Of a stretch of 30,563 bases of DNA, positions 10,568 through 28,828 are shown in pieces. The translations under genes were made by a program, and so were the position numbers. The DNA is from Pseudomonadota bacterium. Its GTDB lineage: Bacteria; Pseudomonadota; Gammaproteobacteria; Steroidobacterales; Rariloculaceae. The DNA lies in the NCBI GenBank assembly GCA_009843005.1, contig VYEH01000327.1, positions 4,369 through 34,931 on the forward strand, written 5' to 3'. The notes beneath the pieces are model-generated. The model was not told the origin of the DNA. It saw only the letters and a list, made by a program, of their open reading frames with translations, and searched no databases. The number at the start of each line of letters is the position of its first letter. Position 1 is the first letter of the stretch.

Positions 10568-11629
10568 GTGCTTGAATTCGTTTTCAGCATTTCGCCGATG
10601 CGGGTGTTGTTCGGCGCGGGAAGCCGGCATCGGCTCGAAGAGGAATTGAACAGTCTGGGCGTGGGTCGCGCGTTGCTTGTCGCGGATCCGGCGCACCAAC
10701 GATTGGCGCGGGAATTGGCCGCGCAACTGGGCGCGCGGTGCGTCGGGATCTTTGATGGCGTCGTTCAGCACGTTCCGATCGAGGTCGCCGAAGCGGGCAG
10801 GGCAAAGGTGCGGGAGTTGCAGGCGGACTGCTGCGTCACGATAGGCGGCGGATCGGCCACCGGCCTCGGCAAGGCCATCGCCATGGAGATTGCCCTGCCG
10901 CTTGTGGCCGTGCCCACTACCTATGCCGGCTCCGAAATGACGCCCATCTGGGGGCTCACCGAAGGTGGTCTCAAGCGCACCGGAAGGGATCCCCGGGTGC
11001 AGCCCAGGGTCACGCTCTACGACCCGGAACTGACGGTTACCCTGCCGCCCGCCGTGGCCGGACCCAGTGGCATGAATGCAATCGCACACTGCGTCGAGGC
11101 GCTTTATGCGCAAAACGCCAACCCGATCATGTCGCTGCTGGCAGAGGAGGGCGTGCGCGCGCTGGCCGAGGCGCTGCCGCAGGTCATGGCAGCGCCGGAC
11201 GATCTGGACAACCATGGCAAGGCGCTGTACGGCGCCTGGCTGGCAGGTGTCGTGCTGGGGTCGGTGGGCATGGCGTTGCACCACAAGTTGTGCCACGTGC
11301 TCGGGGGTACCTTCAATACGTCCCACGCGGATACCCACGCACTCATTCTTCCCTATGCCAGCGCCTACAACATGGAGGCAGCGCCGGATGCGAAACGACG
11401 GCTGACGGCGGCGTTGGGAACGTCGCAGGTCGCTCCTGCCCTGCGCGAGCTTTCGCTGTCGGTCGGGGCTCCGGCGACGCTGAAGGAACTGGGCTTGAGC
11501 ACTGCTGACTTGAAGACCGCTGCCGAACTGGCGACCCGGGCGCCCTACTACAATCCCCGGGAGGTGACGCGCGATGGCGTACATCAACTCCTTCTCGATG
11601 CTTACCACGGCGAGATGCCCGAGGCGTAG
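10568..11629 (+). CDS. hapF: Maleylacetate reductase (Fe-ADH superfamily)
   Basis: RVLFGAGS, GGGSATGLGKAIA, PTTYAGSEMTP, NAIAH and ALHHKLCHVLGG are typical of maleylacetate reductases. Sits next to a ring-cleavage dioxygenase. Confidence 0.9.
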   Translation: MLEFVFSISPMRVLFGAGSRHRLEEELNSLGVGRALLVADPAHQRLARELAAQLGARCVGIFDGVVQHVPIEVAEAGRAKVRELQADCCVTIGGGSATGLGKAIAMEIALPLVAVPTTYAGSEMTPIWGLTEGGLKRTGRDPRVQPRVTLYDPELTVTLPPAVAGPSGMNAIAHCVEALYAQNANPIMSLLAEEGVRALAEALPQVMAAPDDLDNHGKALYGAWLAGVVLGSVGMALHHKLCHVLGGTFNTSHADTHALILPYASAYNMEAAPDAKRRLTAALGTSQVAPALRELSLSVGAPATLKELGLSTADLKTAAELATRAPYYNPREVTRDGVHQLLLDAYHGEMPEA

Positions 11630-11702: not shown

Positions 11703-12593
11703 ATGCAAGATTTCACCGAAGACAACCTTACTCAAGTCGTCTGCGAAGAATACGGATCCAAAACGACTGACGAACGCCTGCGCGTGGTCGTAACGAGCCT
11801 GATCCAGCACCTTCACGCCTTCATCAAGGACGTCGAGCTGACCGAGGCGGAGTGGTACAGGGCGGTGGAATTTCTTACGGCTACCGGCCAGGTATGCAAC
11901 GAAGAGCGCCAGGAATTCGTGTTGCTTTCGGACGTCCTGGGCGTCTCCATGCTGGTGGATGCGATCAACAACCGCCGTTCCGGTCTGGGCACGGAGAACA
12001 CCGTGCTCGGGCCGTTTCATGTATCCGGCGCGCCTGAGCTGCCCATGGGCGCCAACATCATGCTCAAGGACATCGGCGGCACGCCGGCCTTTGTGCAGGG
12101 GCGGATCACCGACCAGGACGGCACCCCGCTGGAGGGGGCCGTGCTGGATGTCTGGCAGGCCTCCCTGCGCGGTTTCTATGACGTGCAGGACCCTGAAGTG
12201 CCCCAGTGGAACCTGCGCGGCAAGTTCACCACCGGCGCCGATGGCCGGTACTGGTTCGCCACGGAACTGCCCGGGCCATACCCCATTCCCCCCGACGGTC
12301 GGGTTGGAGAACTGTTGCGGGCCTGCGGACGTCACCCGATGCGTCCCGGCCACCTGCATTTCATCATCACCGCAGAGGGCCACGACCGGCTGACGACCCA
12401 TATTTTCACGGCGGGTGACGAGTATCTGGAGTCCGACTCGGTCTTCGGTACCAAGAGTTCCCTGGTCGGGGAGTACGAAACCTGTCATGACGAGGAAATG
12501 GCAAGGAAATACGGGTTGAGCGTGCCGTTCCAGATGCTGGATTTCGATTTTGGCCTGATGCGTTCGGTGGCGGAGGAACCGGTAGCGGCCTGA
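11703..12593 (+). CDS. Intradiol ring-cleavage dioxygenase, hydroxyquinol 1,2-dioxygenase-like
   Basis: N-terminal dimerisation region LIQHLHAFIKDVELT, EFVLLSDVLG, GPFH, Fe(III) ligand motifs FYDVQ, PYPIP and RPGHLHF, and DSVFG. Confidence 0.9.
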   Translation: MQDFTEDNLTQVVCEEYGSKTTDERLRVVVTSLIQHLHAFIKDVELTEAEWYRAVEFLTATGQVCNEERQEFVLLSDVLGVSMLVDAINNRRSGLGTENTVLGPFHVSGAPELPMGANIMLKDIGGTPAFVQGRITDQDGTPLEGAVLDVWQASLRGFYDVQDPEVPQWNLRGKFTTGADGRYWFATELPGPYPIPPDGRVGELLRACGRHPMRPGHLHFIITAEGHDRLTTHIFTAGDEYLESDSVFGTKSSLVGEYETCHDEEMARKYGLSVPFQMLDFDFGLMRSVAEEPVAA

Positions 12594-12594
12594 C

Positions 12595-14352
12595 CTACGA
12601 CCGCTTGCGTGGCGTCCGTTCGGTTTCTTCCAGCACGGCCAGCAGCCGGCTGATCATCGTGCCGCCCAGGTCTTCGGGGCGTTGCAGCTCAATGGCCCTG
12701 CTGTAATAGCGCGTGACATCGTGGCCGATACCGATCGCCAGCAGTTGTACCGGAGAAGCAGCCTCGATCCAGTCGATCACCGCGTGCAGGTGCCGTTCCA
12801 GGTATTCGTTGTCATTGGCGGCCATGGTGGAATCGTCCACCGGCGCACCGTCGGAAATGACCATGAGTATGCGGCGCGGCTCCGGCCGCACCAGGAGCCG
12901 TTGATGGGCCCAGAGCAGCGCCTCGCCGTCGATATTCTCCTTCAGCAGGTCCTCGCCCAGCATCAGCCCAAGGTTCTGCCTGGCCCGGCGCCACGGGACC
13001 TCGGCGCGCTTGTAGATGATGTGGCGCAGTTCATTCAGGCGTCCCGGTTGCTCCGGCCGACCTGCCGCCAACCAGTTGTTTCGCGCCCGCCCGCCGCGCC
13101 ATTTCCGGGTCGTGAAACCGAGGATCTCCGACTTGACCCCGCAGCGTTCCAGCGTCTTGCCGAGAATTTCGGCGCACACCGCCGCCATGGTGATGGGTTC
13201 GCCGCGCATGGATCCGGAGTTGTCGATCAGCAGCGTCACTGCCGTATCGATGAACCGGGTTTCGGTCTCCTGTTTGTAGGCGAGTGATTCCAGCGGATTG
13301 ACGATGACCCGGGTCAGCCGGCTGGCATCCAGCAGGCCCTCCTCGAGATCGAACTGCCATTCGCGCGACTGGCGGGCCATCAGGTACCGTTGCAGGCGAT
13401 GTGCCTGACGGGTAACCGCATAGAGTTCGCCCGGGATGTTGGTATCCAGTTGCTGCCGCAGCATTGCCAGCCGCCCCGGATCGCACAGATCACCCGCGTC
13501 AACGACTTCATCGAATTCCGTGGTATGAATACGGTACCGCGCAGTATCGCCAGCTTCATCCGGCGGCAGGGATTTCTCAACCACCTGCCGTTTCTTTCGC
13601 ACGAGATCGCCGCGTGTCGGGTCCCACCGCGGTACGTCGTCCGCACGGATGCGCCTGGTTGCGGGGTCTTCGCTCGCCTGTTCAAGCCGGCTGGACTCTC
13701 CGCGACTGAATTGCGGTTCGCCGGTGGAGAGCTTGAGCGCTCCAATGAGTCCGGTGGCTCGAGCCGCGAAGGCCGCTTGATCGTGACGTACTGAGGCGAG
13801 CGCCTCGATGTGTTCGACGACATGCGGCTTCATCCAGTCCGGATAACCCTGTTCCAGTACGTTGGCTGCGGCGTGCGGCAAGGGTGCGCCGAGGCGGTGT
13901 CTGGCGACGAGTACAACAGCTTCGATACGGTTGTCGCGCAGCGATTCCTGGAGCCGGTGAATGCCCGCGTCGCGTATACGCCAGTCCTGCAGCGCACGAA
14001 TGTTTTCGGTAACGCCTGCCATATGCAGGCTGCCCTCAGCCTCCACCCGGCATTGCTCCAGCATGGAAAAGAGCTTGCCGGCCATTTTCCCGGCGGGCTT
14101 GGCGGATTCGTGAAGCAGGGCGTCGCTATGACCCGACCGAAGCGCCAGTGCGTCCAGACGGCCTCGGAACAGGCTGTAAGGCTCCTGAGGAGCCTCGTCG
14201 CCGGGCGCCGGCAAGCTGACTGTGGAGCCGCTGACGCGCAGCCGCTTGCCCCGGAGGACGACATGCATCGAGTAGTCCCTGCCCAGCGCCCGAAGCGCCG
14301 CCGCCGACACCTGTTCGACGAGGCTGTTGACTACAACGGACTGTTCAGTCAC
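12595..14352 (-). CDS. cobT: CobT-like vWA-domain protein (cobaltochelatase CobT family)
   Basis: GTG start overlapping the cobS stop. [20 protein letters not shown] motif [38 protein letters not shown] and [11 protein letters not shown]. Confidence 0.88.
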
Positions 14353-15349
14353 CGGGAGTGAGCAGGGCGACGGATGGGGCGAGCTCTACTCCGAAACAGC
14401 GCTGGTAATACTCAGCCACCGTGGGTTGTTCTGCCTCGTCGCACTTGTTCAGAAAGGTCAGGCAGAACGCGCGCTCGGTCTCCCTGAAGATTTCCGCATT
14501 TTCCGCCCAGTTGATGACGGTTCTCGGCGACATGACGGTGGACAGGTCGCCCGCGATGAATCCCTGGCGTGTAAGGTTTGCCAACGCCACCATCTGGCCC
14601 ACTGTTTGCTGCCTGTCCGCGCTGGCGTACGAAGGAACGCGAGCCGTAACAATGGCCGCCTCGGCATCGGAATCCAGGTAATTCAGGGTGACGACGATGT
14701 TCCAGCGGTCCAACTGCCCCTGATTGATCGGCTGTGTACCCTGATAGAGCCCGGTGGCATCACCCAAACCAATGGTGTTGGCCGTCGCAAACAGACGGAA
14801 CCACGGGTGTGGATGAATCACCCGGCTCTGGTCCAGCAGGGTGAGCTTGCCTTCCACTTCAAGGACCCGGTGGATGACGAACATGACATCGGGTCGTCCG
14901 GCGTCGTATTCGTCGAAAATCAGGGCCACGGGGCGCTGCAGCGCCCAGGGGACGATGCCTTCGCGAAATTCCGTCACCTGCTTGCCGTCCCTGATGGCGA
15001 TGGCGTCCTTGCCGATCAGGTCCAGGCGGCTGACGTGGCTGTCCAGGTTGACCCGCACGCAGGGCCAGTTCAGCCGTGCGGCCACCTGTTCCACGTGGGT
15101 GGATTTTCCTGTGCCGTGATAGCCCTGGACCAGCACCCGCCGGTTGTGAACGAATCCGGCCAGCAGGGCCAGGGTCGTATCCCGGTCGAAGCAGTAGGCG
15201 GTGTCCACATCCGGCACGTGTTCGTCGGCGCGGCTGAACGCGGGGACCTCAAGGTCGCTGTCGATCCCGAAGGTTTCGCGCACGGATACCGTGGTATCCG
15301 GCCGATCCGACAGCGGTACGACGGGGATTTGCGGCGCTTTCGAACTCAT
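14345..15349 (-). CDS. cobS: CobS-like AAA+ ATPase (cobaltochelatase CobS family)
   Basis: Walker [29 protein letters not shown], Walker [23 protein letters not shown] and [11 protein letters not shown]. Confidence 0.92.
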
Positions 15350-15738
15350 GGTTTCGTACTCGGCGAACCACCTATGATGACCGAATTGCCCGCGACTTCA
15401 ACCGGCACGGCGTCCAGATGGCCTCCCTTGACCGGTCCGTCGACGCAGAATCCGTCCTCAAAGCGGAATATCGCGCTGTGGTGGGAACACATGACCCGGC
15501 CCGGGCCGCTGATCAGGAACTTCTCCGGCAGGAAATTGAGCGGCAGCCAGAAATGGGGGCACACGTTGACGTAACCCCAGGCGTTCCGGCCTGTCCGGAA
15601 CACCACCATGCGAAATTGGTCCGGCCCCTCACCGAACTTGAATTCCTTTCCCGCACCGTCCTGGATCTGGTCGAGTCGGCACAAACGCGTTCCGGGTTCC
15701 GGAGCGTTCAAGTGCTCATGCCAATACCTGGGCTGCAT
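15346..15738 (-). CDS. Small Rieske [2Fe-2S] ferredoxin
   Basis: CPH and CSHH Rieske motifs, plus F..EDG.CVDGP. The stop overlaps the cobS start (ATGA). Confidence 0.9.
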
Positions 15739-15794
15739 GCCTTACTCGCAGTCGTGTGGCCCTGAACACGTGGCGGCCTGTATCGATCAGGCCA

Positions 15795-17264
15795 TTAACG
15801 CTCGTAGTAGGGGGGGATCTTCGCGTCGACGTTGACCCAGACGGATTTTGCGTCCGTGTACTCGTGCATGGCTTCGAAACCCATCTCGCGGCCGTAGCCG
15901 GAACTGCCGACACCGCCGAATGGTGAACCGGGATTCACCCGCTTGTAGCAATTGACCCAGACCATGCCCGAGCGCATCGCCCCCGCCACCTTGTGGGCCC
16001 GCGACAGGTCCCGGCTCCACAGGCCGCCGCCCAGGCCGTACTCCGTGGAGTTGGCCAGTTCGATGACCTCATCGTCGGATGAGAAAGTGTTCACCGAAAC
16101 GAATGGCCCGAAGACTTCTTCCTGGCAGACTCTGTCCTCGGGTTGTGCCTTTACGACCGTAGGTTCGACGTAGTTGCCCCTGGCGAGCTCGGGGTTGTCG
16201 GGACGCTTGCCGCCGATAAGAATCTCGCCACCCTCCTGATAGGTGATGTCGCAGTAGCTGAGGACGGCTTTCTGCTGTGTCGCGGACGTCAGCGGTCCCA
16301 TCTCGGTTGCCGGATCCAGCGGATTGCCCAGACGGATGGACTTCGCCAGAGCAAGGAAACCGTCGAGGAATTCATCCGCGATGCGCTCGTGCAGCAGCAA
16401 GCGCGAGCCGGCGATACAGGCCTGTCCCTGATTGTGGAAGATCGCGAAGGCACTCCCGTTGATCGCGGCCGGCAGGAAGGCATCTTCGAATACGATGTTC
16501 GCGCCCTTGCCGCCGAGTTCCAGTTGCACGCGTTTGAGGTTGCCGGCAGAGTAGTTGACGATCTGCCGCCCCACGCTGGTGGAGCCGGTAAACGCGATCT
16601 TCTGAACGTCGGGGTGCTCGGCGAGATGCTGGCCCGCCGTGCGTCCCGACGCGGGTACGATGTTCACGACCCCCGGCGGAAATCCAGCTTCCGCCATGAG
16701 TTCGCCGATCTTCAGTGCTGTCAGCGGCGTGACCTGCGCGGGCTTGATGACCACCGTGTTGCCCGCGGCGAGCGCCGGTCCCATCTTCCAGCTGGTGAAC
16801 ATGAGCGGAAAGTTCCAGGGAATGATCTGACCCACCACACCCACAGGCTCGCGCGTGACATAGTTCAGGAACCCGGGCTCCACCGGTACGACGCTGCCCC
16901 GGACCTTGTCTGCCATCCCCCCGAAGTAACGGTAAGTGAACGACGTTCGCGGAACGTCCAGACCCGTAGTGTCGCGGATCGGGTGGCCGGTATCGAGGGA
17001 TTCGATTTGAGCCAGTTCTTCGGCATTGTCCTCGACCAGATCGGCCAGTCTGAGCAGCAGCCGGCCTCGTTCGGCGGCCTGCATGTCCCGCCAGGCGGGA
17101 AAGGCGCGTTTCGCCGCGGCTACGGCCCTGTCGATATCCGCCACCTGGGCCATGGCCACTGGCGTGATTTCGGAGTTGTCGTGGGGATTGAGAACGGAGG
17201 AGGTGGACCCGTCTTCGGCGTCGACGAATTCACCGTCAATGAACAGTTTTGATTGAAGTGTCAT
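15795..17264 (-). CDS. hapE: 4-hydroxymuconic semialdehyde dehydrogenase (aldehyde dehydrogenase family)
   Basis: PWNFPL, FTGST, LELGGKG (catalytic Glu), FHNQGQACIAGSRL (catalytic Cys) and EEVFGP. Directly follows the hydroquinone dioxygenase genes. Start moved to 17264. Confidence 0.85.
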   Translation of the reverse strand: MTLQSKLFIDGEFVDAEDGSTSSVLNPHDNSEITPVAMAQVADIDRAVAAAKRAFPAWRDMQAAERGRLLLRLADLVEDNAEELAQIESLDTGHPIRDTTGLDVPRTSFTYRYFGGMADKVRGSVVPVEPGFLNYVTREPVGVVGQIIPWNFPLMFTSWKMGPALAAGNTVVIKPAQVTPLTALKIGELMAEAGFPPGVVNIVPASGRTAGQHLAEHPDVQKIAFTGSTSVGRQIVNYSAGNLKRVQLELGGKGANIVFEDAFLPAAINGSAFAIFHNQGQACIAGSRLLLHERIADEFLDGFLALAKSIRLGNPLDPATEMGPLTSATQQKAVLSYCDITYQEGGEILIGGKRPDNPELARGNYVEPTVVKAQPEDRVCQEEVFGPFVSVNTFSSDDEVIELANSTEYGLGGGLWSRDLSRAHKVAGAMRSGMVWVNCYKRVNPGSPFGGVGSSGYGREMGFEAMHEYTDAKSVWVNVDAKIPPYYER

Positions 17265-17342
17265 GCCCGAGTTTCGCTGTTTGCCCCGCAAAAATCGGCG
17301 GCAATTATACTGCGCGGGTCAGGTCGAAAAAGAAGTCAGGTA

Positions 17343-18347
17343 TCAGAACTCGCCGGACAGGTTGACCGGCAATTCGCCCCGCTCATACATGGCGGGCAGT
17401 TCAGGGTTGCCGTTTTCCCAGACCAGCAACATCGAGCGCTTCTTGGAGAAGCCCTGGTGACGGATGTCGGCGGGCATGATGGCGACGTCGCCCGCCTTCA
17501 TGATGACCTTGGCCCGCGGCCTGCCGGTTTCCTTGTCCTCGATCTCCCAATCGATCTGGTCGCTGAGCTGCACGAACCATTCCATGCGGTCGTTGCCGTG
17601 CTTGATCGGCAGGATGTACTCCTCGGTCGTCGGGCAGAAAAGGCTCTGCTTCACCACGGAACTTACCGAAGGGTTCCATGTGACATCGGAGCGCGAAAGG
17701 TAGCCGAACAGGTTGTGGGCATGCACTTCGTCTGCGAAGCCAGGTTCGGGGTAAACCTCGGGCTGGTCCGGGGGCGCCGCGGGAAAGGCGCGGTGGCCGG
17801 GCCGGCGATTGTCATCGGTGCGCAGCGGTGCATCGCCCGGCAGGCCCGGCATGCGACGGCAGACTTCCCGTTCCCGGTCGACAGCCTCATTGTTGTCACC
17901 GTTCTTCTTTCCGATCCACCCGGTGCCGGTCTCGTCAGGCGAGGCGAAGGGATCGTAGCCGTCATTGGTCCAGTCGCGCAGCAGTGTCCTGAATGTTTCC
18001 ATTGCCAGCGGAGTCTCGAAAATTTCTTCGTAGTCTAGGCCCTGATCGCGATAGGAGGGGTTGTAGCGCCCCGCAAAGAACTTGACGCGGCCGTAGAGTT
18101 GCTGCGTGCCGAACACTGCATCGAAGTTGATCCAGCCGTAGAAGAAGCCCCACGCCACGGCGCGCATCACCGCGCGCAGGAACGCGTCTGCCGACATGGT
18201 ATGCGAGAGTTTCTGACCTTTGGCAGTCCAGGTGATGTAGGCGAAGTACTCGTCGCGGGCGAAGGAAAAGCCGCCGATCTCAAAGCTTCTGTAGCCGGTT
18301 TCGTTGCTGGCGGGCGATGCGCCGATCTCGATTGCGGTAGCGGCCAT
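17343..18347 (-). CDS. hapD: Hydroquinone 1,2-dioxygenase large (catalytic cupin) subunit
   Basis: RDEYFA, VAWGFFYGW, YLSRSDVTWNPSV, LFCPTTEE, HGNDRMEWF and ADIRHQG (His/Glu/His Fe(II) ligands) match the HapD/PnpD/HqdB family. Confidence 0.93.
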   Translation of the reverse strand: MAATAIEIGASPASNETGYRSFEIGGFSFARDEYFAYITWTAKGQKLSHTMSADAFLRAVMRAVAWGFFYGWINFDAVFGTQQLYGRVKFFAGRYNPSYRDQGLDYEEIFETPLAMETFRTLLRDWTNDGYDPFASPDETGTGWIGKKNGDNNEAVDREREVCRRMPGLPGDAPLRTDDNRRPGHRAFPAAPPDQPEVYPEPGFADEVHAHNLFGYLSRSDVTWNPSVSSVVKQSLFCPTTEEYILPIKHGNDRMEWFVQLSDQIDWEIEDKETGRPRAKVIMKAGDVAIMPADIRHQGFSKKRSMLLVWENGNPELPAMYERGELPVNLSGEF

Positions 18348-18403
18348 TGTTCATGTTCTCCGAAAGTGTTTGTTCCTGATTGGCTTTCTATATGTGGTTC
18401 GGT

Positions 18404-18919
18404 TCAGGTGTAGCAAATTTCCGACCATTTCTCAACGGACTCGTCACCCAGAATGGTCTGCATCAGGATGACCCCGACAGCATCGGGATCGGGTGCCCTG
18501 AATCGATAGGCGGCGCCCGTGGGCAGCAATGCCTGGTGCCCGCGCCACATCCTGATCCTGCCCATCTTTCGGCCGACCGGTTCGCCGTCGAGTTTCACGG
18601 CGCCCTCCTTGTCGGGCGGTGCGATGCTGTGCGGATCGTCCAGCTTGACCAGGTCCAGTTCCACGGTGCCGTCCATGACCAGCGCGAACTCGTCATGGGC
18701 AGCGGTGTACCAGTCCGAAGTGCCCTCGGCGCGGATGGCCTCCAGGACGTATTCGACGTTCTTGCCGACCACCACCCGCTCGTATGGCGCTGACGTTGCA
18801 GCGACTTCGAACATGTTCGAGAACGCGTAGTTCTTGCGATCGTCGTTTATGATCTCGATCTCGCCCTTGGTGTAATCCTTGAGCGAGCCGAACACCGTTC
18901 GGAACTCCGTCATGGCCAT
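18404..18919 (-). CDS. hapC: Hydroquinone 1,2-dioxygenase small subunit
   Basis: ATG 18919 behind GGAGG. FRTVFGSL.DY.KG.IEIINDD, YAFSNMFEVA, AHDEF, GHQALLP and KWSEIC. Confidence 0.92.
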   Translation of the reverse strand: MAMTEFRTVFGSLKDYTKGEIEIINDDRKNYAFSNMFEVAATSAPYERVVVGKNVEYVLEAIRAEGTSDWYTAAHDEFALVMDGTVELDLVKLDDPHSIAPPDKEGAVKLDGEPVGRKMGRIRMWRGHQALLPTGAAYRFRAPDPDAVGVILMQTILGDESVEKWSEICYT

Positions 18920-19056
18920 AAGAGTTTTCCCTCCGGCTCGAGTTTCATAGATTCCCGGTCGCGCCGTCATCGGCCACTCCGGAATCGCCGATAATTGGTT
19001 TGCGGAGTCTATCCGCATGCCCTCCGGCGGGGCAATACGCACGGATTACTCCCGGT

Positions 19057-20694
19057 TCATTCGCACATGAAATTGCCCGCAACCCAATTCGCCGGGTCGT
19101 TCGGATCGCCATCGCCGACGTAGGCCGCCTGTTGGGGATGCGGACAAACAATCCGTTCGTTGTCCACGACGTCGGTCTGGCGCTGCACCCGCTGCACCGT
19201 CATGGAATCCGGCGCTACGCCGTTTTCCACCCAGTCCACCATGTGCTCCAGCCGGTCCCACCTGCTCGGACCGGGTCCGCCCCCGCAGTGGGCCATGCCG
19301 GGAATCATGAACAGCCGCACGGCATCGTCCGCGGTCGCGCGGTCGCCGTCGAAGGTGGCATCGACCACTTCGCTGTAATAGTCCACGATCGGCTCGGCGG
19401 GGATGATCGTGTCGGCCCAGCCATGGTAAATAAGCAACTTGCCCCCTTCCTGTATCAGGTAACGAGTCAGATTCGGATCGTCCGCATCGGTTATGTCGCG
19501 CATGGTGTCGCCGAGTCCGGCGGTGAAGTCGTCAAAGTCGAATTGCCACCAGGCAAACTCCGGCGGTTCCCGGGTAGGATCGGGCGCCAGCGAGAGGTCG
19601 GTCGGTCGCGTCGTGGGCACTCCCGGGTCGGTATCGTAGAAGAGAAAATTCACGTAGTCCGATGCCAGTCCCATCTGGCCGGGACGGTGGTTGTTGCCCT
19701 GGTGCGGGATCACGACCCTCGGCCAGAGCACCTCGGTCCCGAACGATTTGCCCTTGTAGATGGACTTGCCCCGGGAATCATAGGGGCCGCTGTAGATGTC
19801 CTTGATGGCCTGGAGCTGTGTGGTCGTGAAGCAGTCGTCCGCGTTCACGTCATTCGGGCACATGGCATGGGCGAGGTCCCGTTCCGGTGAAAAGTCGCAC
19901 GACAGGGGATCGTTGATCACCCGGTCCGTGATTCCGTCGTTGGCGTCGCATTGGGCGAGCACGGCTTCGGTCAGCATGTTGGCCTTGGTGAGGCTGTCGA
20001 GCTGGCCGTCGCCGGTGGTGTCGAAGGCGAGCGACGCGGCGTGGTTGTCCTTGAGCATGATCTGCATGTCCCAGTTGTGGGTGAGATTCAGTCGCTGCAG
20101 GAAGGAGGCCGGAGCGCCGGCGACGATGCCGTCGAAGGTTGCAGGCAGCCGCTGTGCAGCCATCAGCCCCTGGCGCCCGCCGGTGGAGCAGCCTTCGTGG
20201 TAGGCGTAGTCCGCCGGCCGGCCGTAGTAGGCTCTGATGGCCCGCTTGGCCGCCGCGGTCGTCACTTCAAGGTGGCGATAGCCGTAGACTATTTCGGCCT
20301 GGCGGTTGTTGAACGCCCACGTTGCCCCGGGCTGTGAACCGCTGTCGTGGCCCATGTTGCTGTTGGCAACTGCGTATCCCTGGGCAACTCTGTGGGGCGC
20401 GTAGTCCAGGTCGCCATCGTGTCCGCCATCGCCCCAGTGAAGGAATCGCCCGTTCCAGGCTTCCGGCGGCGGCAATTGCACGTACCAGGTGATGCCGGGA
20501 GCGATCAGGCCCTGTACGTGACAATGGGGGGGAAACCGCTCGTCGCCAGGGCGCCATTCCGCCCGGTACAGAGTCAGGTTGCGCGTATTGATCATGCTTT
20601 CGCAGTGTGCGGTCTGATCGTCCTGGCCGTAGCCGGGGGTGGCGCATGCCAGCCAACCGAGAACAGGCATGAGCGCCGCTGCCAGTGTTTTCAT
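19057..20694 (-). CDS. Secreted tannase/feruloyl esterase family hydrolase
   Basis: Signal peptide, EGCSTGGRQG, FDGIVAGAP, YHGWAD and PGMAHCGGG, i.e. the CS-D-HC disulfide motif. Start moved to 20694. Confidence 0.9.
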   Translation of the reverse strand: MKTLAAALMPVLGWLACATPGYGQDDQTAHCESMINTRNLTLYRAEWRPGDERFPPHCHVQGLIAPGITWYVQLPPPEAWNGRFLHWGDGGHDGDLDYAPHRVAQGYAVANSNMGHDSGSQPGATWAFNNRQAEIVYGYRHLEVTTAAAKRAIRAYYGRPADYAYHEGCSTGGRQGLMAAQRLPATFDGIVAGAPASFLQRLNLTHNWDMQIMLKDNHAASLAFDTTGDGQLDSLTKANMLTEAVLAQCDANDGITDRVINDPLSCDFSPERDLAHAMCPNDVNADDCFTTTQLQAIKDIYSGPYDSRGKSIYKGKSFGTEVLWPRVVIPHQGNNHRPGQMGLASDYVNFLFYDTDPGVPTTRPTDLSLAPDPTREPPEFAWWQFDFDDFTAGLGDTMRDITDADDPNLTRYLIQEGGKLLIYHGWADTIIPAEPIVDYYSEVVDATFDGDRATADDAVRLFMIPGMAHCGGGPGPSRWDRLEHMVDWVENGVAPDSMTVQRVQRQTDVVDNERIVCPHPQQAAYVGDGDPNDPANWVAGNFMCE

Positions 20695-20911
20695 TCTTCG
20701 CCTCCCGTCACGAAACAGCTGATGTGAAGTGCGCCAGAGATTACGCTGGCGGGCTTTGTTTGTCGATTTGGTGGCGGAACTGGAATTGAACCGCAAGTGC
20801 CGCCGAATCAGAGTTTTCCATATACAATGGTCGGCGCCGGACCGGGCAGATGCCGTCTCGATCTACAGGTCGGGAATGGGCAGGCGGTCAAGAACAACAG
20901 GTGAAAAACGG

Positions 20912-21733
20912 ATGAGGCGAATCACTTGCGGGCTCGTTGCGCTCGTTGCCGGTTTCATGTGTTTTCCCGCATTCGGTCAGTACGATCTCTCTGGCGAGTG
21001 GTCGCCGCGCTATCACGAAGACCAACCCGAGCGCATCCCGGGACCGGACATGGTGGAATTCCAGGGCATTCCCATCAACGAAGCCGGCCGACTGCGCGGC
21101 CTGAGCTGGAGCCCGTCCCTGCTGACGGTGCCCGAACACCAGTGCAAGCCGCATCCCTCCGACTATGCCCATCGCGGTCCCGGCCGCATGCGCATCTGGA
21201 ACGAATACGACTCCGCCAGCCAGCAATTGATCGCGATTCACACGCGGCTGAGGTGGCAGGCGCCGGAGCGCACCATCTGGATGGATGGCCGGGCGCATCC
21301 GCCGGAGTACGCCGCCCATACCTGGCAAGGGTTCTCCACGGGACGGTGGGACGGCGAAATGCTGACGGTGACGACCACCCATCTCAAACAGGGATGGTAT
21401 CGCCGCAACGGTCTGGCGCGAAGCGACCGGGCCCACGTCACCGAACATTTCATACGCCACGACAACTACCTCACGCAGATCGTGATCATCGACGATCCGG
21501 TGTACCTCACCGAGCCGTTCATCCGCACCAATAACTGGGTGCTGGACCCGCGCCAGCAGATCGCTCCCTATCTCTGCGATATCGTCGTGGAAGTGGACCG
21601 TCCGCAGGGAACCGTGCCGCACTACCTGCCCGGACAGAACCCGTTTCTGGAAGAACACGCCGATCGCTATCAACTGCCCCTGGAGGGTGTCCTGGGCGGC
21701 GCCGAGACGACCTATCCCGAATTCATCGAGTAA
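20912..21733 (+). CDS. Secreted TTHL-motif protein of unknown function (DUF6152-associated)
   Basis: Signal peptide MRRITCGL...PAFG, DLSGEW, RTIWMDGR, GFSTGRWDG and VTTTHL. Confidence 0.7.
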   Translation: MRRITCGLVALVAGFMCFPAFGQYDLSGEWSPRYHEDQPERIPGPDMVEFQGIPINEAGRLRGLSWSPSLLTVPEHQCKPHPSDYAHRGPGRMRIWNEYDSASQQLIAIHTRLRWQAPERTIWMDGRAHPPEYAAHTWQGFSTGRWDGEMLTVTTTHLKQGWYRRNGLARSDRAHVTEHFIRHDNYLTQIVIIDDPVYLTEPFIRTNNWVLDPRQQIAPYLCDIVVEVDRPQGTVPHYLPGQNPFLEEHADRYQLPLEGVLGGAETTYPEFIE

Positions 21734-22732
21734 TTGTTAGCCATGGACTGGTTAAACGTCCGGAACCAACGCAGGACAGTCGCGAATATTCAATCGTGTG
21801 CCTTGCTGGCCGTTTGCCTCTGGGGCGTCGGCGCCGTCGCCTACGACGGAGGCGCAGAGGCGCAGGCCGAGATCGGCGTGCTGCCCGTGCAGGGTAATGT
21901 CTACATGCTGGTCGGAGCCGACGGCAATGTGACCATTCAGGTGGGCGAGGAGGGCGTCCTCATCGTAGACACCCTGCGCGAAGAGTTGAGCGATCGGCTG
22001 CTGGCGACGATTCGGGAGCTGTCCGACGGGCCGATCCGCTATCTCATCAGCACGCATGCACACGCGGACAATACAGGGGGCAATGCAACCATCGCCCAGG
22101 CAGGCAGCAACATCGCCGGGGGGAATGTGCTGGGTGCGATTGCCGACGCCGGAGAAACCGCAAAGATCATCGCACACGAAAACGTGCTCATCTCGATGAG
22201 TGCCGCCGAGACACCGTTACCGTTCGCAGCCTGGCCAACGGATACGTACTTTACGGACCGCAAGGAAGTGTTCTTCAACGGGGAGGCCGTGCAGGTCCTG
22301 CACCAGCCCGCGGCGCATACGGACGGGGACAGCATCGTATTTTTCCGCCGCTCGGACGTCATCAGTACCGGAGACATTTTTCTCACTACCCACTACCCGT
22401 ACATCGACCGGGACAATGGCGGAACCTATCAGGGAATCATCGATGCGTTGAACCGCATCATCGACCTGACCGTGCCGGCTGACCGGCAGGAGGGCGGAAC
22501 CATGGTGATCCCGGGGCAGGGACGGCTGTGCGACGAAGCCGATGTGGTGGAGTATCGCGACATGCTGACCATCATTCGTGACCGGATTCGCTACCTGTTG
22601 GGGCAGGGTGCGTCCCTTCGGGAAGTTCTGGATGCCCGGCCGACGCTGGATTACGATGGCCGTTATGGCGCCGATTCGGGGTCTTGGACCACGGTGCAGT
22701 TCATCACGGCGATCTACGAGGAAATGAGTTAG
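21734..22732 (+). CDS. Secreted MBL-fold metallo-hydrolase (cyclase-like) with variant metal motifs
   Basis: GNVYMLVGA, THAHADNTGGN, AHTDGDS, TGDIF and IPGQG. The true start may be ATG 21743. Confidence 0.85.
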   Translation: MLAMDWLNVRNQRRTVANIQSCALLAVCLWGVGAVAYDGGAEAQAEIGVLPVQGNVYMLVGADGNVTIQVGEEGVLIVDTLREELSDRLLATIRELSDGPIRYLISTHAHADNTGGNATIAQAGSNIAGGNVLGAIADAGETAKIIAHENVLISMSAAETPLPFAAWPTDTYFTDRKEVFFNGEAVQVLHQPAAHTDGDSIVFFRRSDVISTGDIFLTTHYPYIDRDNGGTYQGIIDALNRIIDLTVPADRQEGGTMVIPGQGRLCDEADVVEYRDMLTIIRDRIRYLLGQGASLREVLDARPTLDYDGRYGADSGSWTTVQFITAIYEEMS

Positions 22733-22742
22733 AAGAGAGGGC

Positions 22743-23138
22743 TTGGTACGGATGAAACTACGACTCGCAGCGGCGCTCGCGGGCGTCGTGGTGACCTTGG
22801 GTTTGCAGGCAACGGCGCATCATTCGTTTTCCGCGACGTATCACATCGACGAGCAAATTATGATCGAGGGCCGGCTGGTGGCCTTCCTCTACCGTAATCC
22901 CCATGCCTTCCTGCACGTGAACGTGACCGACGAAGAAGGCGACACTGCGCGCTGGGCCATAGAGTGGGGCGGTGCGGCGGTGCTGACCTCCCAGAGCGTC
23001 ACCCGTGAGACCCTCAAGCCGGGAGACTTCGTTGTCGTCACCGGCAACCCGGGACGCAACCCGGAGGACCACCGCATGCGCATGCAGCACATCGAGCGGC
23101 CGTCGGACGGTTGGGCGTGGGGCGGTGAGTTTGACTGA
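22743..23138 (+). CDS. Secreted DUF6152-like protein
   Basis: Signal peptide ending ATA, then HHSFSATY...RNPH...WAIEWGG...LKPGDFVVVTGNP. Alternative start at ATG 22752. Confidence 0.8.
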   Translation: MVRMKLRLAAALAGVVVTLGLQATAHHSFSATYHIDEQIMIEGRLVAFLYRNPHAFLHVNVTDEEGDTARWAIEWGGAAVLTSQSVTRETLKPGDFVVVTGNPGRNPEDHRMRMQHIERPSDGWAWGGEFD

Positions 23139-23883
23139 ACCACTTCGGTTGCGCGCCCGGATACTCATTGCATGCGTCGCCCTGCCGGCGCTGGCTCACG
23201 ATGTTGCGGCGCAGGAATTGGTCACCGCGCGGGAAGTCGCACCGGTGGACCTGACCGGCTACTGGACGGCGGTGGTGACGGAAGACTGGCGCTGGCGAAT
23301 GGTGACGCCTCCAAAGGGCGATTACGCAAGCCTCCCGCTCAATGACGAGGGACGTCGAATTGCCGATGGCTGGGATCCGGAGGCGGAAGGCGACGCTTGC
23401 AAGGTATACGGCGCCGCCGGCGTGATGCGCATGCCGTTGCGGGTCCGTATCACCTGGGAAAACGACAATACGCTCCGCATCGATACCGATCACGGCATGC
23501 AGACACGCTTGCTGAATTTCGATCCTGCAGCGGCAGCTCCGGCCGAACACTCGCTTCAGGGTCACTCCGCGGCGCACTGGGGACGGGAGGATATCGGGTT
23601 CGACCGAGAGGACTGGCAGGAGTCCAATATCGGTACCATGTTGAAGGTGACCACCACCCACCTGAGCCCCGGATTCCTGCGCAGGAACGGCGTGCCGTAC
23701 GGCAGCGACACGGTCATGACGGAGTACTATGATCGCCATGCGGCATACGGCGAGGAGTGGTTTACCGTTACGACCATCGTCAGCGACCCGCAGCACCTGA
23801 CCCAGGAGTTCATCACCAGTTCCAGCTTCAAGCGATTGCCCGACGGTTCTTCCTGGAATCCGGTCCCGTGCGGTTCCTATTGA
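23131..23883 (+). CDS. Secreted TTHL-motif protein of unknown function (DUF6152-associated)
   Basis: Probable TTG start overlapping the upstream stop (TTGACTGA). DLTGYW, CKVYGAAG, VTTTHL, LRRNGVPY and terminal W.PVPC. Confidence 0.7.
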   Translation: MTEPLRLRARILIACVALPALAHDVAAQELVTAREVAPVDLTGYWTAVVTEDWRWRMVTPPKGDYASLPLNDEGRRIADGWDPEAEGDACKVYGAAGVMRMPLRVRITWENDNTLRIDTDHGMQTRLLNFDPAAAAPAEHSLQGHSAAHWGREDIGFDREDWQESNIGTMLKVTTTHLSPGFLRRNGVPYGSDTVMTEYYDRHAAYGEEWFTVTTIVSDPQHLTQEFITSSSFKRLPDGSSWNPVPCGSY

Positions 23884-23996
23884 AGCGGTCGCGGCCCATC
23901 AGGAGTCATTTCAATGAATATTTGCAGTAGATCCCAACCGCATACTGTCGCCGGGGCGGGCGGTGTCAGGCACATTCATTTCAGGGAGGAAAGAGC

Positions 23997-24341
23997 ATGA
24001 GCAAGATGGCGAGAGGTCTGGCGCCTGTCATGGTTGCGCTGATCTTCGGCACAGCGGCGATGTCCCAGGATCGGTTGCAGAGAGGCAAGGAAGTCTACGA
24101 CTATTGGTGCATCAACTGCCATGGGAGCTTTCCCGGTACGCCGGGGACACAGGCGCTTGAGGTGCTCTACAGGGGACTCAAGCCCGCCGACCTGGAAGAG
24201 CGAACCGATTTGCCGGCGGAACTGGTAAGACTCTACGTGCGTACCGGCGTGTCCATCATGCCGACTTTTCGCAAGACGGAAATCAGCGACGAGGACCTGG
24301 AGGCACTCGTGGCCTACCTGGCGTTCGACTACGAGCCCTAG
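23997..24341 (+). CDS. Monoheme class I cytochrome c (type usually partnered with flavoprotein hydroxylases)
   Basis: Signal peptide, CINCH heme motif, distal Met in GVSIMP, GGAGG RBS. Confidence 0.88.
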   Translation: MSKMARGLAPVMVALIFGTAAMSQDRLQRGKEVYDYWCINCHGSFPGTPGTQALEVLYRGLKPADLEERTDLPAELVRLYVRTGVSIMPTFRKTEISDEDLEALVAYLAFDYEP

Positions 24342-24405
24342 TGCTCCATCAACCTCATAACGCCGTATCGGTGGCCGCAGGGTTGACAGATCTCGACACG
24401 ACGAC

Positions 24406-25749
24406 ATGAAAACAGTACCGCTGATCTCGGCAGCAGAGGCTGCGCGCAAGGTCAAATCCGGCGACATACTGGTCGTTGGCGGATTTGGCATGACCGGTAC
24501 GCCGATTCACCTGCTGGATGCGATCGCCGAAACCGACGTCGGGGGCCTCACGATGATCGCCAACAACATCGGCGAGCCCGGTCTCGGGGGCGGCCGAATG
24601 CTGCGTAACGGGCAGATCAGCAAGGCGATCGGTTCCTATTTCACCACCAATCGCGAGGCCGTCGAGGCCTATCTGTCCGGGGATATCGACATTGAACTGC
24701 TGCCCCAGGGCAGCATGGCCGAGGCGATTCGCGCGGGAGGAGCCGGCCTCGGCGGGTTCTATACGCCCACTTCTGCCGGAACGCCGCTGGCAGAGGGGCG
24801 CGACACCCGCATCATCGGCGGCAAGGAGCATGTTTTCCAGCCGGCCCTGACTGCGGACGTGGCGCTGATACGCGCCTGGCAGGCCGATACCTCCGGCAAT
24901 CTCGTGTACCGCAGGACCGAGAACAACTTCAACCAGGCAGCGGCCACTGCCGGTAAACTGGTCATTGCCGAGGCGGAGACAGTCGTTCCCGTGGGGGAAC
25001 TGGACCCGGATCATATCCATACGCCCGGCTGTTTCGTCGACTACCTGGTCGAGGCGCATACCACACTTGAAGAGTTGGGCAGTTCCGCCTCGGTGTCCGG
25101 CAGTCTGAAGAAGGTGAGCGCGGCGCGCATGACCATGGCGCGGGCGGCGCTGGAGGAACTCGGTCCGGGCGATGTCGTCAATCTGGGCATCGGCATTCCC
25201 ACCCTCGTAGCTGATTTGATCACGCCCGGGCACGGCATCATCATGCACACCGAGAACGGTATGCTCGGCGTCGGTCCGGAACCGGAATCCGGCGGAGCCA
25301 TGGACTACCCGGTCAACGCAGGCAAGATCCCGGTGACCGCCTTGCCGGGCAGCAGCTAGTTCGACAGCGCAAGTTCCTTCGGCATGATCCGCGGCGGGCA
25401 CGTGGATGTGGCGATCATGGGCGGTTTGCAGGTGGATGAGAGCGCCAATCTTGCCAACTGGGCCATTCCCGGCAAGCCGCTTCTGGGGGTAGGGGGCGCG
25501 ATGGACCTCGCCTCGGGTGTTCGGAAGTTGATCGTGACGATGACGCACACAAGCCGGGACGGGGCCGCCAAGATCGTTCCGGAGTGCACGCTGCCGTTGA
25601 CCGCCGTCGGGGCGGTGAGCGTGATCGTCACGGAACTGGCCAAGTTCCGTTTCGTCGATGGGCGCCTGACTCTGGTCGAGGTCATGCCGGGAGCGACGCT
25701 TGACGATATCCGTGCCAGGACGACGGCGCAATTCGAGGTTCGGGTCTGA
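24406..25749 (+). pseudogene. Fused alpha/beta 3-oxoacid (3-oxoadipate-type) CoA-transferase interrupted by an in-frame TAG at 25357-25359
   Basis: Alpha motifs [19 protein letters not shown] and GFYTPT; beta motifs VNLGIGIPT and HTENG. Reads [18 protein letters not shown] and continues in the same frame to 25749. Could be a sequencing error. Confidence 0.8.
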
Positions 25750-25856
25750 AGCGCCGGGTCATCAATGCGAAATGGGCCGACGCAGGGGCACTTATCGGAT
25801 GGCGCAGATTCACATTGACCCGAATCGTATTAACCAAAACACGAGAAGTGACACAT

Positions 25857-27329
25857 ATGTTATTGAAAAGAAGGAACATATACTACGTGATTCACGCTGC
25901 GCTCGGCGTTTATCTACTGTCGTTGGGCGAATTTGCCGACGCCCAGTTACCGACCATGTCGCAGGACTCGCTGGACCAATATCCAACTTCCGAACATGAT
26001 CGGCGCGTCAGCGCGATCGAGTCCTTTGACGACGTGCTGGAAGGTTGGGAGCGCCGCGCCAGAACCGGCAACATCATGAGCACCTACGACGTGCAGGTGA
26101 TCGCGACCTACGATCCTGGCGAACCCAGGTTCGAACCGCAACCGGGGAAGACCTACTTCTACGAAAACCTGGGCACCTCGACGGCGTTCTATTCGGCCGG
26201 ACGCAGGGCGGCGGCAGTGGAGGGCAACCAGGTCGTGGTCGGGGACGCCGAGACCAAGGAAGTCATCGCATCCTACATGTTGGCGCCCGAATTGCGCAGC
26301 AGCATGCACACCACCTTCATGTCTCCCGACGGCCGGTATGTGTATATCATCGGTTCGCCGTCGGGAGAACCAACCGGATTGGTCGCACTCGCCGGGTCGG
26401 CATCCCTGGTCAAGGTCGACGCCCTCACGCTGCAGCCGGTCAAACAGATGAACGTCGGCGGGCGATTGCACCATGGGCAGATCTTTCGGGACGAGTACCT
26501 GTTGATAGACACCTTCGGGCGGGACGACGATGGGCTGGACCTGTTCCTGTTCGACCCGGAGACGGACCAGATCATCGGTGGGGTCCGCGACGAGGACCTG
26601 GGAGGCGCAACGTATACGGCGTATACGGACGACGAGTACATTTACGTGCTGATGGAACCCGTGGGTTACGGCCCCATGGCCTTGACCGGATACATTGGCG
26701 CAACCAATCTGGGACTGGGACGCATCACGGCGTTGCGGCCGTTCTGGGTCACGCAAATCGACCCGGATACCTGGGAAGTTGTGGGCGAATATCCATATCC
26801 GGGTTTTCGGGGCGACTGGATCCTGATCGACGACGCCAGCGAGTACATCTACGTGCCTGGCGGCGGTTCCCACAGCCTGTCCAAGATCGAGCTTGCGACC
26901 GGCGACATTGCATGGCACCGATCGACCGGAATCGGCCCCTACGGCGCTTCGTTCAATGCGGACCAGGCAGAAATCTGGGTGGCGGACAAGGGTGAGGCGA
27001 ACGGATTCTTCGGGCGCACGCTGACCGTCTTCGATACGGCTACCGGGCAACCACTGGAAACCCTGTTCTCCGGTTATGTCGTCGATCACGTGCTGCTGTC
27101 GCCCAACGGCAAGGAGATGTGGGCCACCGCTAACGGCGACGCACAGATATTCGTATACGACGCTACCACGCGGGAAGAGACCCACGTCATCGACATGCCC
27201 AATTGGGGCGAACCCCACGGTCTGGTCTGGGTGCATTATGATATGGATGGAAACGCGCGCGTGGTTCGGGACCAGGGCGGTTTCCGCGGCGGCATCGACC
27301 CGGTTGCGGGTGTCGTCCTGAATTACTGA
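25857..27329 (+). CDS. Secreted YncE/YVTN-like beta-propeller protein
   Basis: Hydrophobic N-terminus and repeats such as MSPDGRYVY, FNADQAEIWVAD, LSPNGKEMWAT and PHGL. No CxxCH. Confidence 0.7.
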   Translation: MLLKRRNIYYVIHAALGVYLLSLGEFADAQLPTMSQDSLDQYPTSEHDRRVSAIESFDDVLEGWERRARTGNIMSTYDVQVIATYDPGEPRFEPQPGKTYFYENLGTSTAFYSAGRRAAAVEGNQVVVGDAETKEVIASYMLAPELRSSMHTTFMSPDGRYVYIIGSPSGEPTGLVALAGSASLVKVDALTLQPVKQMNVGGRLHHGQIFRDEYLLIDTFGRDDDGLDLFLFDPETDQIIGGVRDEDLGGATYTAYTDDEYIYVLMEPVGYGPMALTGYIGATNLGLGRITALRPFWVTQIDPDTWEVVGEYPYPGFRGDWILIDDASEYIYVPGGGSHSLSKIELATGDIAWHRSTGIGPYGASFNADQAEIWVADKGEANGFFGRTLTVFDTATGQPLETLFSGYVVDHVLLSPNGKEMWATANGDAQIFVYDATTREETHVIDMPNWGEPHGLVWVHYDMDGNARVVRDQGGFRGGIDPVAGVVLNY

Positions 27330-27410
27330 TCGCATGGCGTCAGGGGTGGCTTTCCCAATTTCGGGACCATGCTGCCAGGCGGATAGATGCCAGGCAGGTG
27401 CAGGAGGATA

Positions 27411-28703
27411 ATGGCAATGAACATCAGTGTTGGATCACGCGGCATGTTGACGCTGGTTGTGGGCGCCGTGATGGCGGTCACCCTGGCAACCGATGACTTG
27501 ACGGCGCAAGAGGCGCCCGGCTTCCTGTTCGACCCCACCTGGCCAAAGCCGCTGCCCAACAACTGGAAGATCGGCGGCATCACCGGTCTTGCCGTGGATG
27601 CTGACGACAATGTCTGGGTACTGAACCGGCCGAACGACCTGACGGCCCTGGAACTGCGGGTCGAACCGTCGCCGCCGATCGCGCTGTGCTGCGCGCGCCC
27701 GCCGTCGATGATTCACTTCGACAGGAACGGCAATGTCATCGGATCGTTCGATGCGCCCCAGGGACACGGCATGGATGTGGACAACGAGGGATTCGTTTAC
27801 ATCGGCCAGGACACAGTCCGCAAATACGACCCGAACACCGGTCAGGTCGTCGCCGAAATCGCGCGCACGCCGGAGCGAGAGGGTGGCGCACGTGTCGGAC
27901 TCCCGCCGCCCACCGCTCGCGAGCCCGGACAGGGCGGCCGCGGTCCCGTCATCAATTTCATTACGCCCCGTCCGGCCCCCGAACCCGCCGTGCTTGCCCA
28001 GCGGCAGATGGCGGTTGCGGCGTTCCGCGAGCAGTATCCCCCGGAGACGCCCATGGTCGTGGGTGGGATCGAGGAGATCCGCATCATCGACGAGGACAAC
28101 GAGATTTACGTCGCCGACAATTACCTGGGCGGACGGATTCTGGTCTTCGATCTGGAGACACTGGAGTTCAAGCGTGGCTGGGGCGCCTATGGCAAGCCTC
28201 TCGCCGAGATCAGCGTTGACGATGCCGACCACGATTACACGCCCAATGGCCCGATGCCCCCGGACTTCGTCGGTCACCTGACCGTCAACGTCTCCCACGA
28301 CGGTTTGGTGTACGCGGCGGACCGCAACGGAAACCGCATTCACGTCACCACCAAAGAAGGGGAGTTCCTGCAGGAATTCGTTCTGGCGCCCCAGACCGGC
28401 GCCGGCGGTTCAACCGGGGGCGTGGCTTTCTCGCACGATCCCGAGCAGCGCTTTCTCTACATCTCCGATCTCACCAACAACAGGATCTGGTTCCTGAACC
28501 GCGAAGACGGAACCCTTGTTGGGGAGATGGGGACGATGGCCGACAACGGTGGTCAGTTCTTCGGGCTGCACATGATCGCCGTGGATTCCGACGGGAACAT
28601 CTACACGGGCGAAGTCTTTACCGGCCAGCGCGTCCAGAGGTTCGTCCCCGAGGACAGCGAGAGGGGCGAGCTGCTCACGCAACTGGCCGAAATGCAGTTC
28701 TAG
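27411..28703 (+). CDS. Secreted NHL-repeat beta-propeller (peptidyl-alpha-hydroxyglycine amidating lyase-like)
   Basis: AGGAGG RBS, signal peptide, DPTWPKPLP, GLAVDADDNVWV, DGLVYAADRNGNRI and HMIAVDSDGNIYTGEV. Confidence 0.8.
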   Translation: MAMNISVGSRGMLTLVVGAVMAVTLATDDLTAQEAPGFLFDPTWPKPLPNNWKIGGITGLAVDADDNVWVLNRPNDLTALELRVEPSPPIALCCARPPSMIHFDRNGNVIGSFDAPQGHGMDVDNEGFVYIGQDTVRKYDPNTGQVVAEIARTPEREGGARVGLPPPTAREPGQGGRGPVINFITPRPAPEPAVLAQRQMAVAAFREQYPPETPMVVGGIEEIRIIDEDNEIYVADNYLGGRILVFDLETLEFKRGWGAYGKPLAEISVDDADHDYTPNGPMPPDFVGHLTVNVSHDGLVYAADRNGNRIHVTTKEGEFLQEFVLAPQTGAGGSTGGVAFSHDPEQRFLYISDLTNNRIWFLNREDGTLVGEMGTMADNGGQFFGLHMIAVDSDGNIYTGEVFTGQRVQRFVPEDSERGELLTQLAEMQF

Positions 28704-28741
28704 GTCAGGGTGTGTCGGCGCCGGATCTCAGTGTAGCAATT

Positions 28742-28828
<87 letters not shown>

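Follow-up and report, generated by a model that had tools for sequence, protein, structure and literature searches.

We analysed a stretch of 30,563 nucleotides (the window) from a gammaproteobacterial metagenome-assembled genome (MAG) assigned to the Rariloculaceae (assembly GCA_009843005.1, contig VYEH01000327.1, positions 4,369 to 34,931). The window encodes a CobS-like AAA+ ATPase and a CobT-like protein with a von Willebrand factor A (VWA) domain, which lie directly behind a gene for a small Rieske-type protein in the same run of genes as pnpC and pnpD (also hapC and hapD), the two subunits of a hydroquinone 1,2-dioxygenase. From the sequence evidence we consider it, on balance, probable that Rieske, CobS and CobT form a CobN-independent accessory module which would mature or reactivate the Fe(II) enzyme PnpCD/HapCD. 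The coupling of the module to the hydroquinone pathway is well supported, because gene order, conservation across genomes, a separate position in the trees, intact motifs, purifying selection and the lack of a B12 context all point to it; PnpCD as the client, and the iron chemistry, are candidate assignments. The clade that carries the module is a soil and water group of Gammaproteobacteria, including Rariloculaceae-like and Steroidobacteraceae-like genomes and Povalibacter uvarum.

Linkage of cobS and cobT to the hydroquinone dioxygenase genes

Open reading frames (ORFs) and their Pfam and NCBIfam matches placed the tannase, pnpC, pnpD, aldehyde dehydrogenase, Rieske, cobS and cobT genes in one run on the minus strand of the window (Table 1). 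The stop codon of the Rieske gene and the start codon of cobS share the letters ATGA, and the GTG start of cobT overlaps the end of cobS by 8 nt; sequence and ORFs thus agree with the original prediction, which had described both overlaps and the position of the genes behind hapCDE on one strand. The long form of cobT is supported by the fact that residues 15-28 already align to the solved CobT. PnpD of the window matched the solved structures 5m21_B and 4zxa_W with 449 and 447 bits, and PnpC matched 5m21_A with 204 bits over residues 46-212. Residues H250, N252, E256 and H297 of PnpD were invariant in the PnpD alignment, and we take them to be the iron ligands.

Table 1. Genes of the hydroquinone run and its convergent neighbours (positions within the window)
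Feature	Position	Strand	Remarks
Maleylacetate-reductase-like, convergent on cobT	10568-11629	+	Fe-ADH families
Hydroxyquinol/catechol-type intradiol dioxygenase, convergent on cobT	11703-12593	+	Dioxygenase_N/C
cobT-like	12595-14352	-	585 aa; PF06213 + PF11775; N-terminal CobT domain, short non-acidic linker, VWA domain with MIDAS
cobS-like AAA+ ATPase	14345-15349	-	334 aa; PF12556 + PF07728 (AAA_5)
Rieske-type [2Fe-2S] ferredoxin-like	15346-15738	-	130 aa; PF00355, 24.3 bits; CPH...CSHH
Aldehyde dehydrogenase	15795-17291	-	PF00171; HapE/PnpE-like 4-hydroxymuconic semialdehyde dehydrogenase by position and family
pnpD, hydroquinone 1,2-dioxygenase large subunit (PnpD/HapD/HqdB-like)	17343-18347	-	PF18191
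pnpC, hydroquinone 1,2-dioxygenase small subunit (PnpC/HapC-like)	18404-19042	-	similarity to 5m21_A
Tannase/feruloyl-esterase family, head of the same-strand run	19057-20796	-	PF07519

The arrangement was then counted across genomes. A PnpD alignment was used to scan one genome per species, the 80 PnpD loci most similar to that of the window were kept, and CobS was sought within 10 kb of each. In 15 of the 80, Rieske, cobS and cobT directly followed pnpCD on the same strand with small gaps; among them are loci of the cultured isolate Povalibacter uvarum DSM 26723 and of several Steroidobacteraceae MAGs. Their CobS proteins were 58-80% identical to that of the window and their CobT proteins 36-55%. 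Close relatives (CobS 93-96% identical) have the whole arrangement, which was also found in a second genus with CobS 80%, CobT 55% and Rieske 64% identical. The hapCD-Rieske-cobST synteny that had been noticed in the window is therefore not unique to its genome, and the linkage spans at least two coded families. An aldehyde dehydrogenase gene was syntenic with pnpCD in 54 of the 80 loci; depending on the locus it precedes the Rieske gene or comes after cobT, and the Rieske-cobS-cobT trio stays intact despite the shuffled neighbours.

Among 401 evenly sampled genomes of the order, 24 had CobS, 19 had PnpD and 12 had both, and in 9 of these 12 the two genes lay within 7 kb of each other on one strand. 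A sample of 400 genomes of the class contained 20 with CobS, 18 of them outside the order, and none of these 18 had a PnpD or Rieske gene within ~8 kb of CobS.

The trees of CobS and CobT separate the linked copies from the others. Every linked copy, as well as every copy from loci with decayed hap genes, fell outside an "ordinary" clade made up of alphaproteobacterial copies, unlinked copies from the same order, a second pair from the window genome and other gammaproteobacterial copies. Support for the split was 90 for CobS and 99 for CobT; a more thorough CobT search gave 100/99, and a broader CobT sample again 99. The CobT tree placed one further copy (P0354) on the linked side before its context had been looked up, and its locus proved to read MBL-DUF6152-pnpCD-aldehyde dehydrogenase-Rieske-cobST. 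When the linked copies were constrained to one clade the likelihood was slightly better (p-AU 0.52 in the approximately unbiased test), so monophyly is not rejected. No placement of the root emerged, as the addition of six distant gammaproteobacterial CobT proteins as an outgroup-like clade gave a polytomy of the ordinary clade with the linked lineages. In the PnpD tree three changes suffice to explain the "cobST-linked" state, and its main groups recur in the CobS and CobT trees, indicating long co-inheritance. The alternative named in the original prediction, that the window copy would group with ordinary housekeeping cobST, is thus contradicted by both trees; the other part of that alternative, a cobN elsewhere, does apply in that the window genome has a CobN-family gene. 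We had initially taken the window pair for an ordinary, vertically inherited cobST, given 72-79% identity to alphaproteobacterial CobS and an 88%-identical relative that has RNase R, cobST and a PQQ gene in this order, without hap genes. Wider sampling and the trees overturned this view.

The Rieske gene has a wider association with pnpCD, which the original prediction had overlooked. A word-based search for homologues returned close relatives only, whereas an exhaustive HMMER search reached distant ones, and 18 of the 80 PnpD loci were found to have a Rieske homologue but no cobST. Burkholderiales and Pseudomonas nitroreducens are examples of bacteria with pnpCD clusters of this kind. The clusters are therefore nested: pnpCD alone, pnpCD with Rieske, and pnpCD with Rieske and cobST. 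The members of this Rieske family are about 120-135 aa long, and the ligands C60, H62, C84 and H87 were invariant in 44 homologues, with a spacer of 21 residues between the two motifs compared with the usual 15-17. No useful sequence match to the protein was found among solved structures. An AlphaFold2 model (predicted local distance difference test, pLDDT, 90) was best matched in Foldseek by CarAc, BphF and TmoC (template modelling score 0.7-0.76 by target), which are Rieske ferredoxins of the oxygenases for carbazole, biphenyl and toluene. Neither a partner Rieske oxygenase nor a ferredoxin reductase was found among the ORFs of the window.

Features of the CobS and CobT proteins and the B12 context

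CobS of the window matched PF12556 with 64 bits and PF07728 with 45 bits. Against the equivalog model TIGR01650 it scored 555.5 bits, narrowly (by 3 bits) missing the cutoff of 558.55, while CobT scored 582 bits against TIGR01651, far under the cutoff of 759. Compared with the solved chelatase subunits, CobS matched 9ujv_A with 507 bits and ~75% identity and CobT matched 9uka_G with 482 bits, the VWA domain being ~70% identical; solved CbbQ and NorQ were distant sequence matches of CobS. Walker A (GTGKST), Walker B (DEYD) and the metal ion-dependent adhesion site (MIDAS; DNSGS/T/D) are intact in the window pair, as originally reported, and the Walker motifs, sensor-1, the SPR arginine and all three MIDAS elements were retained in every linked copy. 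Ratios of nonsynonymous to synonymous substitution rates (omega) of 0.04-0.09 for cobS and 0.13-0.25 for cobT indicate purifying selection.

The missing acidic tract in the central region of CobT, also pointed out in the original prediction, proved to be common to the linked copies when the composition of the linker was compared. The linker of the window CobT has 68 residues, of which 13 are acidic (D+E) and 14 basic, and the medians for linked copies are 70 aa, 13 acidic and 11 basic, compared with 99 aa, 36 acidic and 4 basic for ordinary CobT. We also looked for other regions in which the linked copies diverge specifically. Per-domain identities gave none but the linker, the linked copies being more divergent throughout.

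No cobN or other B12 gene had been seen in the window, and indeed no further ORF matched a B12 family; an Rfam search of the window for a cobalamin riboswitch found none, the sole match being a tRNA. The statement that the pair occurs "without cobN" holds for the window but not for the genome (463 contigs, 88.6% complete), which has a CobN-family gene and a second, divergent cobST on other contigs. In the second pair (contig C164, L006:92-2842) CobS and CobT share 59% and 40% identity with their window counterparts; the pair forms a long branch inside the ordinary clade, and a cobO/btuR adenosyltransferase gene is found 3.8 kb away. The CobN-family gene (1462 aa, contig C71, L007:8306-15674) comes directly after a TonB-dependent receptor gene and exbB, and the same type is present in genomes G001 and G015. 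It looks like a protein with a role in uptake or elsewhere rather than in B12 synthesis.

Among the 11 genomes with linked cobST, a CobN-family gene was present in five (the window genome G000, G001, G015, G405 and G407) and CobN was not found in six (G013, closed G016, G021, the Povalibacter isolate G404, G406 and G408). Genomes G404 to G408 each have a single CobT, the linked one. CbiC/CobH (PF02570), the sole corrin-pathway marker searched, matched six control genomes and was not found in G000, G015, G016, G021 or Povalibacter G404, two of these five genomes being closed. Genomes of the same family or order with a canonical CobN had no CobS, and C164, C71 and three other loci, like the window, gave no cobalamin riboswitch match. 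Together with the conserved linkage and the separate tree position, the failure to find the corrin marker in five genomes gives good support to the original proposal that a CobST paralogue was recruited to a hydroquinone ring-cleavage cluster. Annotation pipelines label CobS and CobT as B12 biosynthesis proteins, a label that is very likely wrong in these genomes.

Proposed function and alternative explanations

In the module as we picture it, CobS would be a hexameric AAA+ motor and CobT its VWA/MIDAS adaptor, acting with neither CobN nor a corrin substrate. In the likeliest mechanism, CobT would dock on the dioxygenase through its MIDAS face, and ATP hydrolysis by CobS would remodel the enzyme to allow insertion or exchange of the active-site iron or its release from an inhibitory state. 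The Rieske ferredoxin, presumably co-translated, would donate an electron to reduce Fe(III) back to Fe(II). More specifically, we propose tentatively, and with less than even confidence, that this branch of CobS/CobT left tetrapyrrole metal insertion entirely and may now act on a non-heme Fe(II) dioxygenase of aromatic ring cleavage as its ATP-driven activase or iron chaperone, with the Rieske protein as built-in reductant.

Several known systems resemble parts of this module. Pairs of the MoxR type (NorQ/NorD, CbbQ/CbbO, CoxD/CoxE and RavA/ViaA) also consist of an AAA+ ATPase and a VWA/MIDAS adaptor encoded beside the client; they mature or reactivate metalloenzymes or Rubisco, and ATP-driven remodelling of the client active site is established for them. 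The window pair is like these chaperones in that its two genes are adjacent and stay linked across genomes to those of a candidate client. It differs from them in belonging to the CobS/CobT rather than the NorQ/CbbQ branch, in having a cupin-type non-heme Fe(II) ring-cleavage dioxygenase as its candidate client and in including a dedicated Rieske ferredoxin. Ferredoxins of the XylT/DmpQ type restore the activity of catechol 2,3-dioxygenase, whose Fe(III) they reduce to Fe(II). They share with the Rieske protein their small size, the [2Fe-2S] cluster, a place in a ring-cleavage operon and the lack of an oxygenase or reductase partner of their own; XylT, however, is a plant-type ferredoxin, whereas the window protein has the Rieske fold and is joined in this clade to an ATPase/VWA pair. 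By analogy, the motor would parallel NorQD, CbbQO and CoxDE and the redox side would parallel XylT-type ferredoxins. The closest relative by sequence is the CobNST motor, solved for Rhodobacter capsulatus and Brucella melitensis (bioRxiv 10.64898/2026.10.09.757910; also 10.64898/2026.07.21.739949), with which the pair shares the two-gene architecture, overlapping frames, Pfam domains, Walker A/B, sensor residues and MIDAS. Unlike that system, many carriers lack a CobN match, no corrin marker was found in the genomes tested, the linker of linked CobT is ~30 aa shorter and non-acidic, and the pair is fixed behind Rieske and pnpCD.

Some observations weigh against a dedicated role in the maintenance of PnpCD. 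Most PnpCD clusters (65 of the 80 loci) have no cobST. Burkholderia PnpCD expressed in E. coli showed activity in assays that contained Fe2+ (PMC4879640), so the module is not a general requirement of this enzyme family. The linked cases all belong to a single order and may go back to one recruitment event followed by co-inheritance. In addition, cobST persists intact in relatives (G001, G016, L118, L119 and the P0006 genome) whose pnpCD, aldehyde dehydrogenase and Rieske genes have been deleted or survive as remnants. The deletion is clean in G001, where the tannase gene is joined to cobS. In G016 (L015:9601-9810) a 49-aa PnpD remnant with a TAG and a 70-aa Rieske remnant lie upstream of intact cobST, and a 75-aa Rieske remnant is found at L119:7747-7974. 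The orphan pairs L118 and L119 gave an omega of 0.085 at a dS of ~1.1, and this purifying selection suggests that the pair does more than serve PnpCD or has its client elsewhere. An exception is the P0006-lineage contig XKoXDc2v, in which cobT is split into ORFs of 282 and 310 aa.

That cobST has outlasted pnpCD in several genomes of family f1, intact and under purifying selection, also speaks for a general, CobN-independent cellular role of CobST, with the hydroquinone location due to co-inheritance on an island. Such orphans exist elsewhere: in control searches Caulobacter vibrioides matched CobS_N and CobT_C and gave no CobN match. Ordinary alphaproteobacterial cobS was also seen behind bolA and a gene for a J-domain protein, at one locus next to the suf operon, which hints at a general role in iron or iron-sulfur metabolism. 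The alphaproteobacterial orphan pairs resemble ours in having CobS and CobT with no CobN-family match, but they belong to the ordinary clade and, at the two loci with bolA and the J-domain gene, are not preceded by Rieske and dioxygenase genes. Moreover, 377 of the 401 genomes of the order have no cobST, which is not the pattern of a housekeeping gene, the linked type stays directly behind Rieske despite rearranged neighbours and CobT identities of 36-55%, and its distribution tracks the PnpD tree. We therefore regard a general role as rather unlikely. The place of cobS, always directly after Rieske in the linked loci and ATGA-coupled to it in f1, could instead mean that the motor serves another protein of the island, such as the Rieske protein itself (insertion or repair of its cluster), the aldehyde dehydrogenase or the secreted DUF6152/MBL-fold cassette. 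The orf334-MBL-orf292 cassette was indeed present in 8 of the 15 CobS-bearing PnpD loci, compared with one weak MBL match (30% identity, L035) in the other 65, and DUF6152 genes recur near cobT. On the other hand, the Rieske homologue occurs in the 18 PnpD loci that have no cobST, so it does not generally need the motor, and the cassette and aldehyde dehydrogenase genes are missing or displaced in L028, L031 and L033, where pnpCD, Rieske and cobST are contiguous. Secreted proteins are, besides, unlikely clients of a cytoplasmic AAA+ motor. A different client on the island thus seems improbable to us.

The last alternative is that the pair is an ordinary B12 cobaltochelatase motor, or the partner of the TonB-linked CobN-family protein of the genome, that simply lies next to catabolic genes. 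The high identities to solved CobS and to the VWA domain of solved CobT, the CobS score just under the equivalog cutoff and the CobN-family genes of five carriers would fit such a role. It is hard to reconcile with the failure to find CbiC in five genomes or CobN in 6 of the 11 carriers, with relatives that have canonical CobN without CobS, with the lack of a detectable cobalamin riboswitch, and with a CobT that scores far below its cutoff and has no acidic linker, and we consider it very improbable. A CobN-independent module acting on PnpCD therefore remains the reading that we favour.

Searches of the literature accessible to us that paired CobS/CobT or cobaltochelatase with hydroquinone dioxygenase gave no description of such a module, in line with the original remark that none was known from an aromatic-catabolism cluster. 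If the proposal is true, this would be the first described AAA+/VWA maintenance system for aromatic catabolism, and the clients of such systems, which include nitric oxide reductase, Rubisco and CO dehydrogenase, would extend to oxygen-sensitive ring-cleavage dioxygenases. It could then explain why some degraders of hydroquinone, nitrophenol or alkylphenol hold up better than others, and the module would be a co-expression partner for the biocatalytic use of these dioxygenases. The cultured P. uvarum DSM 26723 offers a testable entry to the function of CobN-less CobST proteins, for which our literature searches also found no description.

Neighbouring genes and further observations

The true start of pnpC probably lies downstream of that of the longest ORF; in relatives the gene is called at 171 aa. 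The tannase gene is found at the same position in f1 relatives, and genes for a maleylacetate-reductase-like protein and an intradiol dioxygenase occur in many other PnpD loci. In the window the stop codons of the hydroxyquinol-type dioxygenase gene and cobT are 1 nt apart (12593-12595), which leaves no space for separate terminators.

RNase R lies ~500 bp from cobS in the 88%-identical relative, whereas ~13.5 kb separate them in the window (15349-28870). This 13.5-kb interval holds the hap genes, the secreted cassette and other ORFs, and a tRNA gene (28745-28828) adjoins RNase R. These intervals are consistent with gain or loss of an island at this site.

Ordinary-type cobST was seen in other surroundings. 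In Azospirillum fermentarium (L120:4960-9013) and an Alphaproteobacteria MAG (L121:4987-7014) cobS follows bolA and a 194-aa J-domain gene, and in the MAG the cobS region borders directly on suf, the operon for iron-sulfur cluster assembly. These surroundings hint at a possible part of ordinary CobN-less CobST, too, in iron or iron-sulfur metabolism. In family f18 (G111, L103:6308-16376; also L104-L107) unlinked cobST of the ordinary type follows a betaine-aldehyde-dehydrogenase-like gene and adjoins genes for an MttB-family methyltransferase, a dimethylglycine-dehydrogenase-like protein and a GFA protein.

The secreted cassette of orf334, MBL-fold, DUF6152 and orf292 genes occupies positions 20729-23883 of the window and was also found in L026, L027, L029, L033, L059, L102 and L117. 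In Povalibacter, a 100-aa gene of the Dabb (stress-responsive A/B barrel) family starts 4 nt past cobT (L023:15572-15874), and Dabb homologues occupy the same position in the linked loci L028, L031 and L033.

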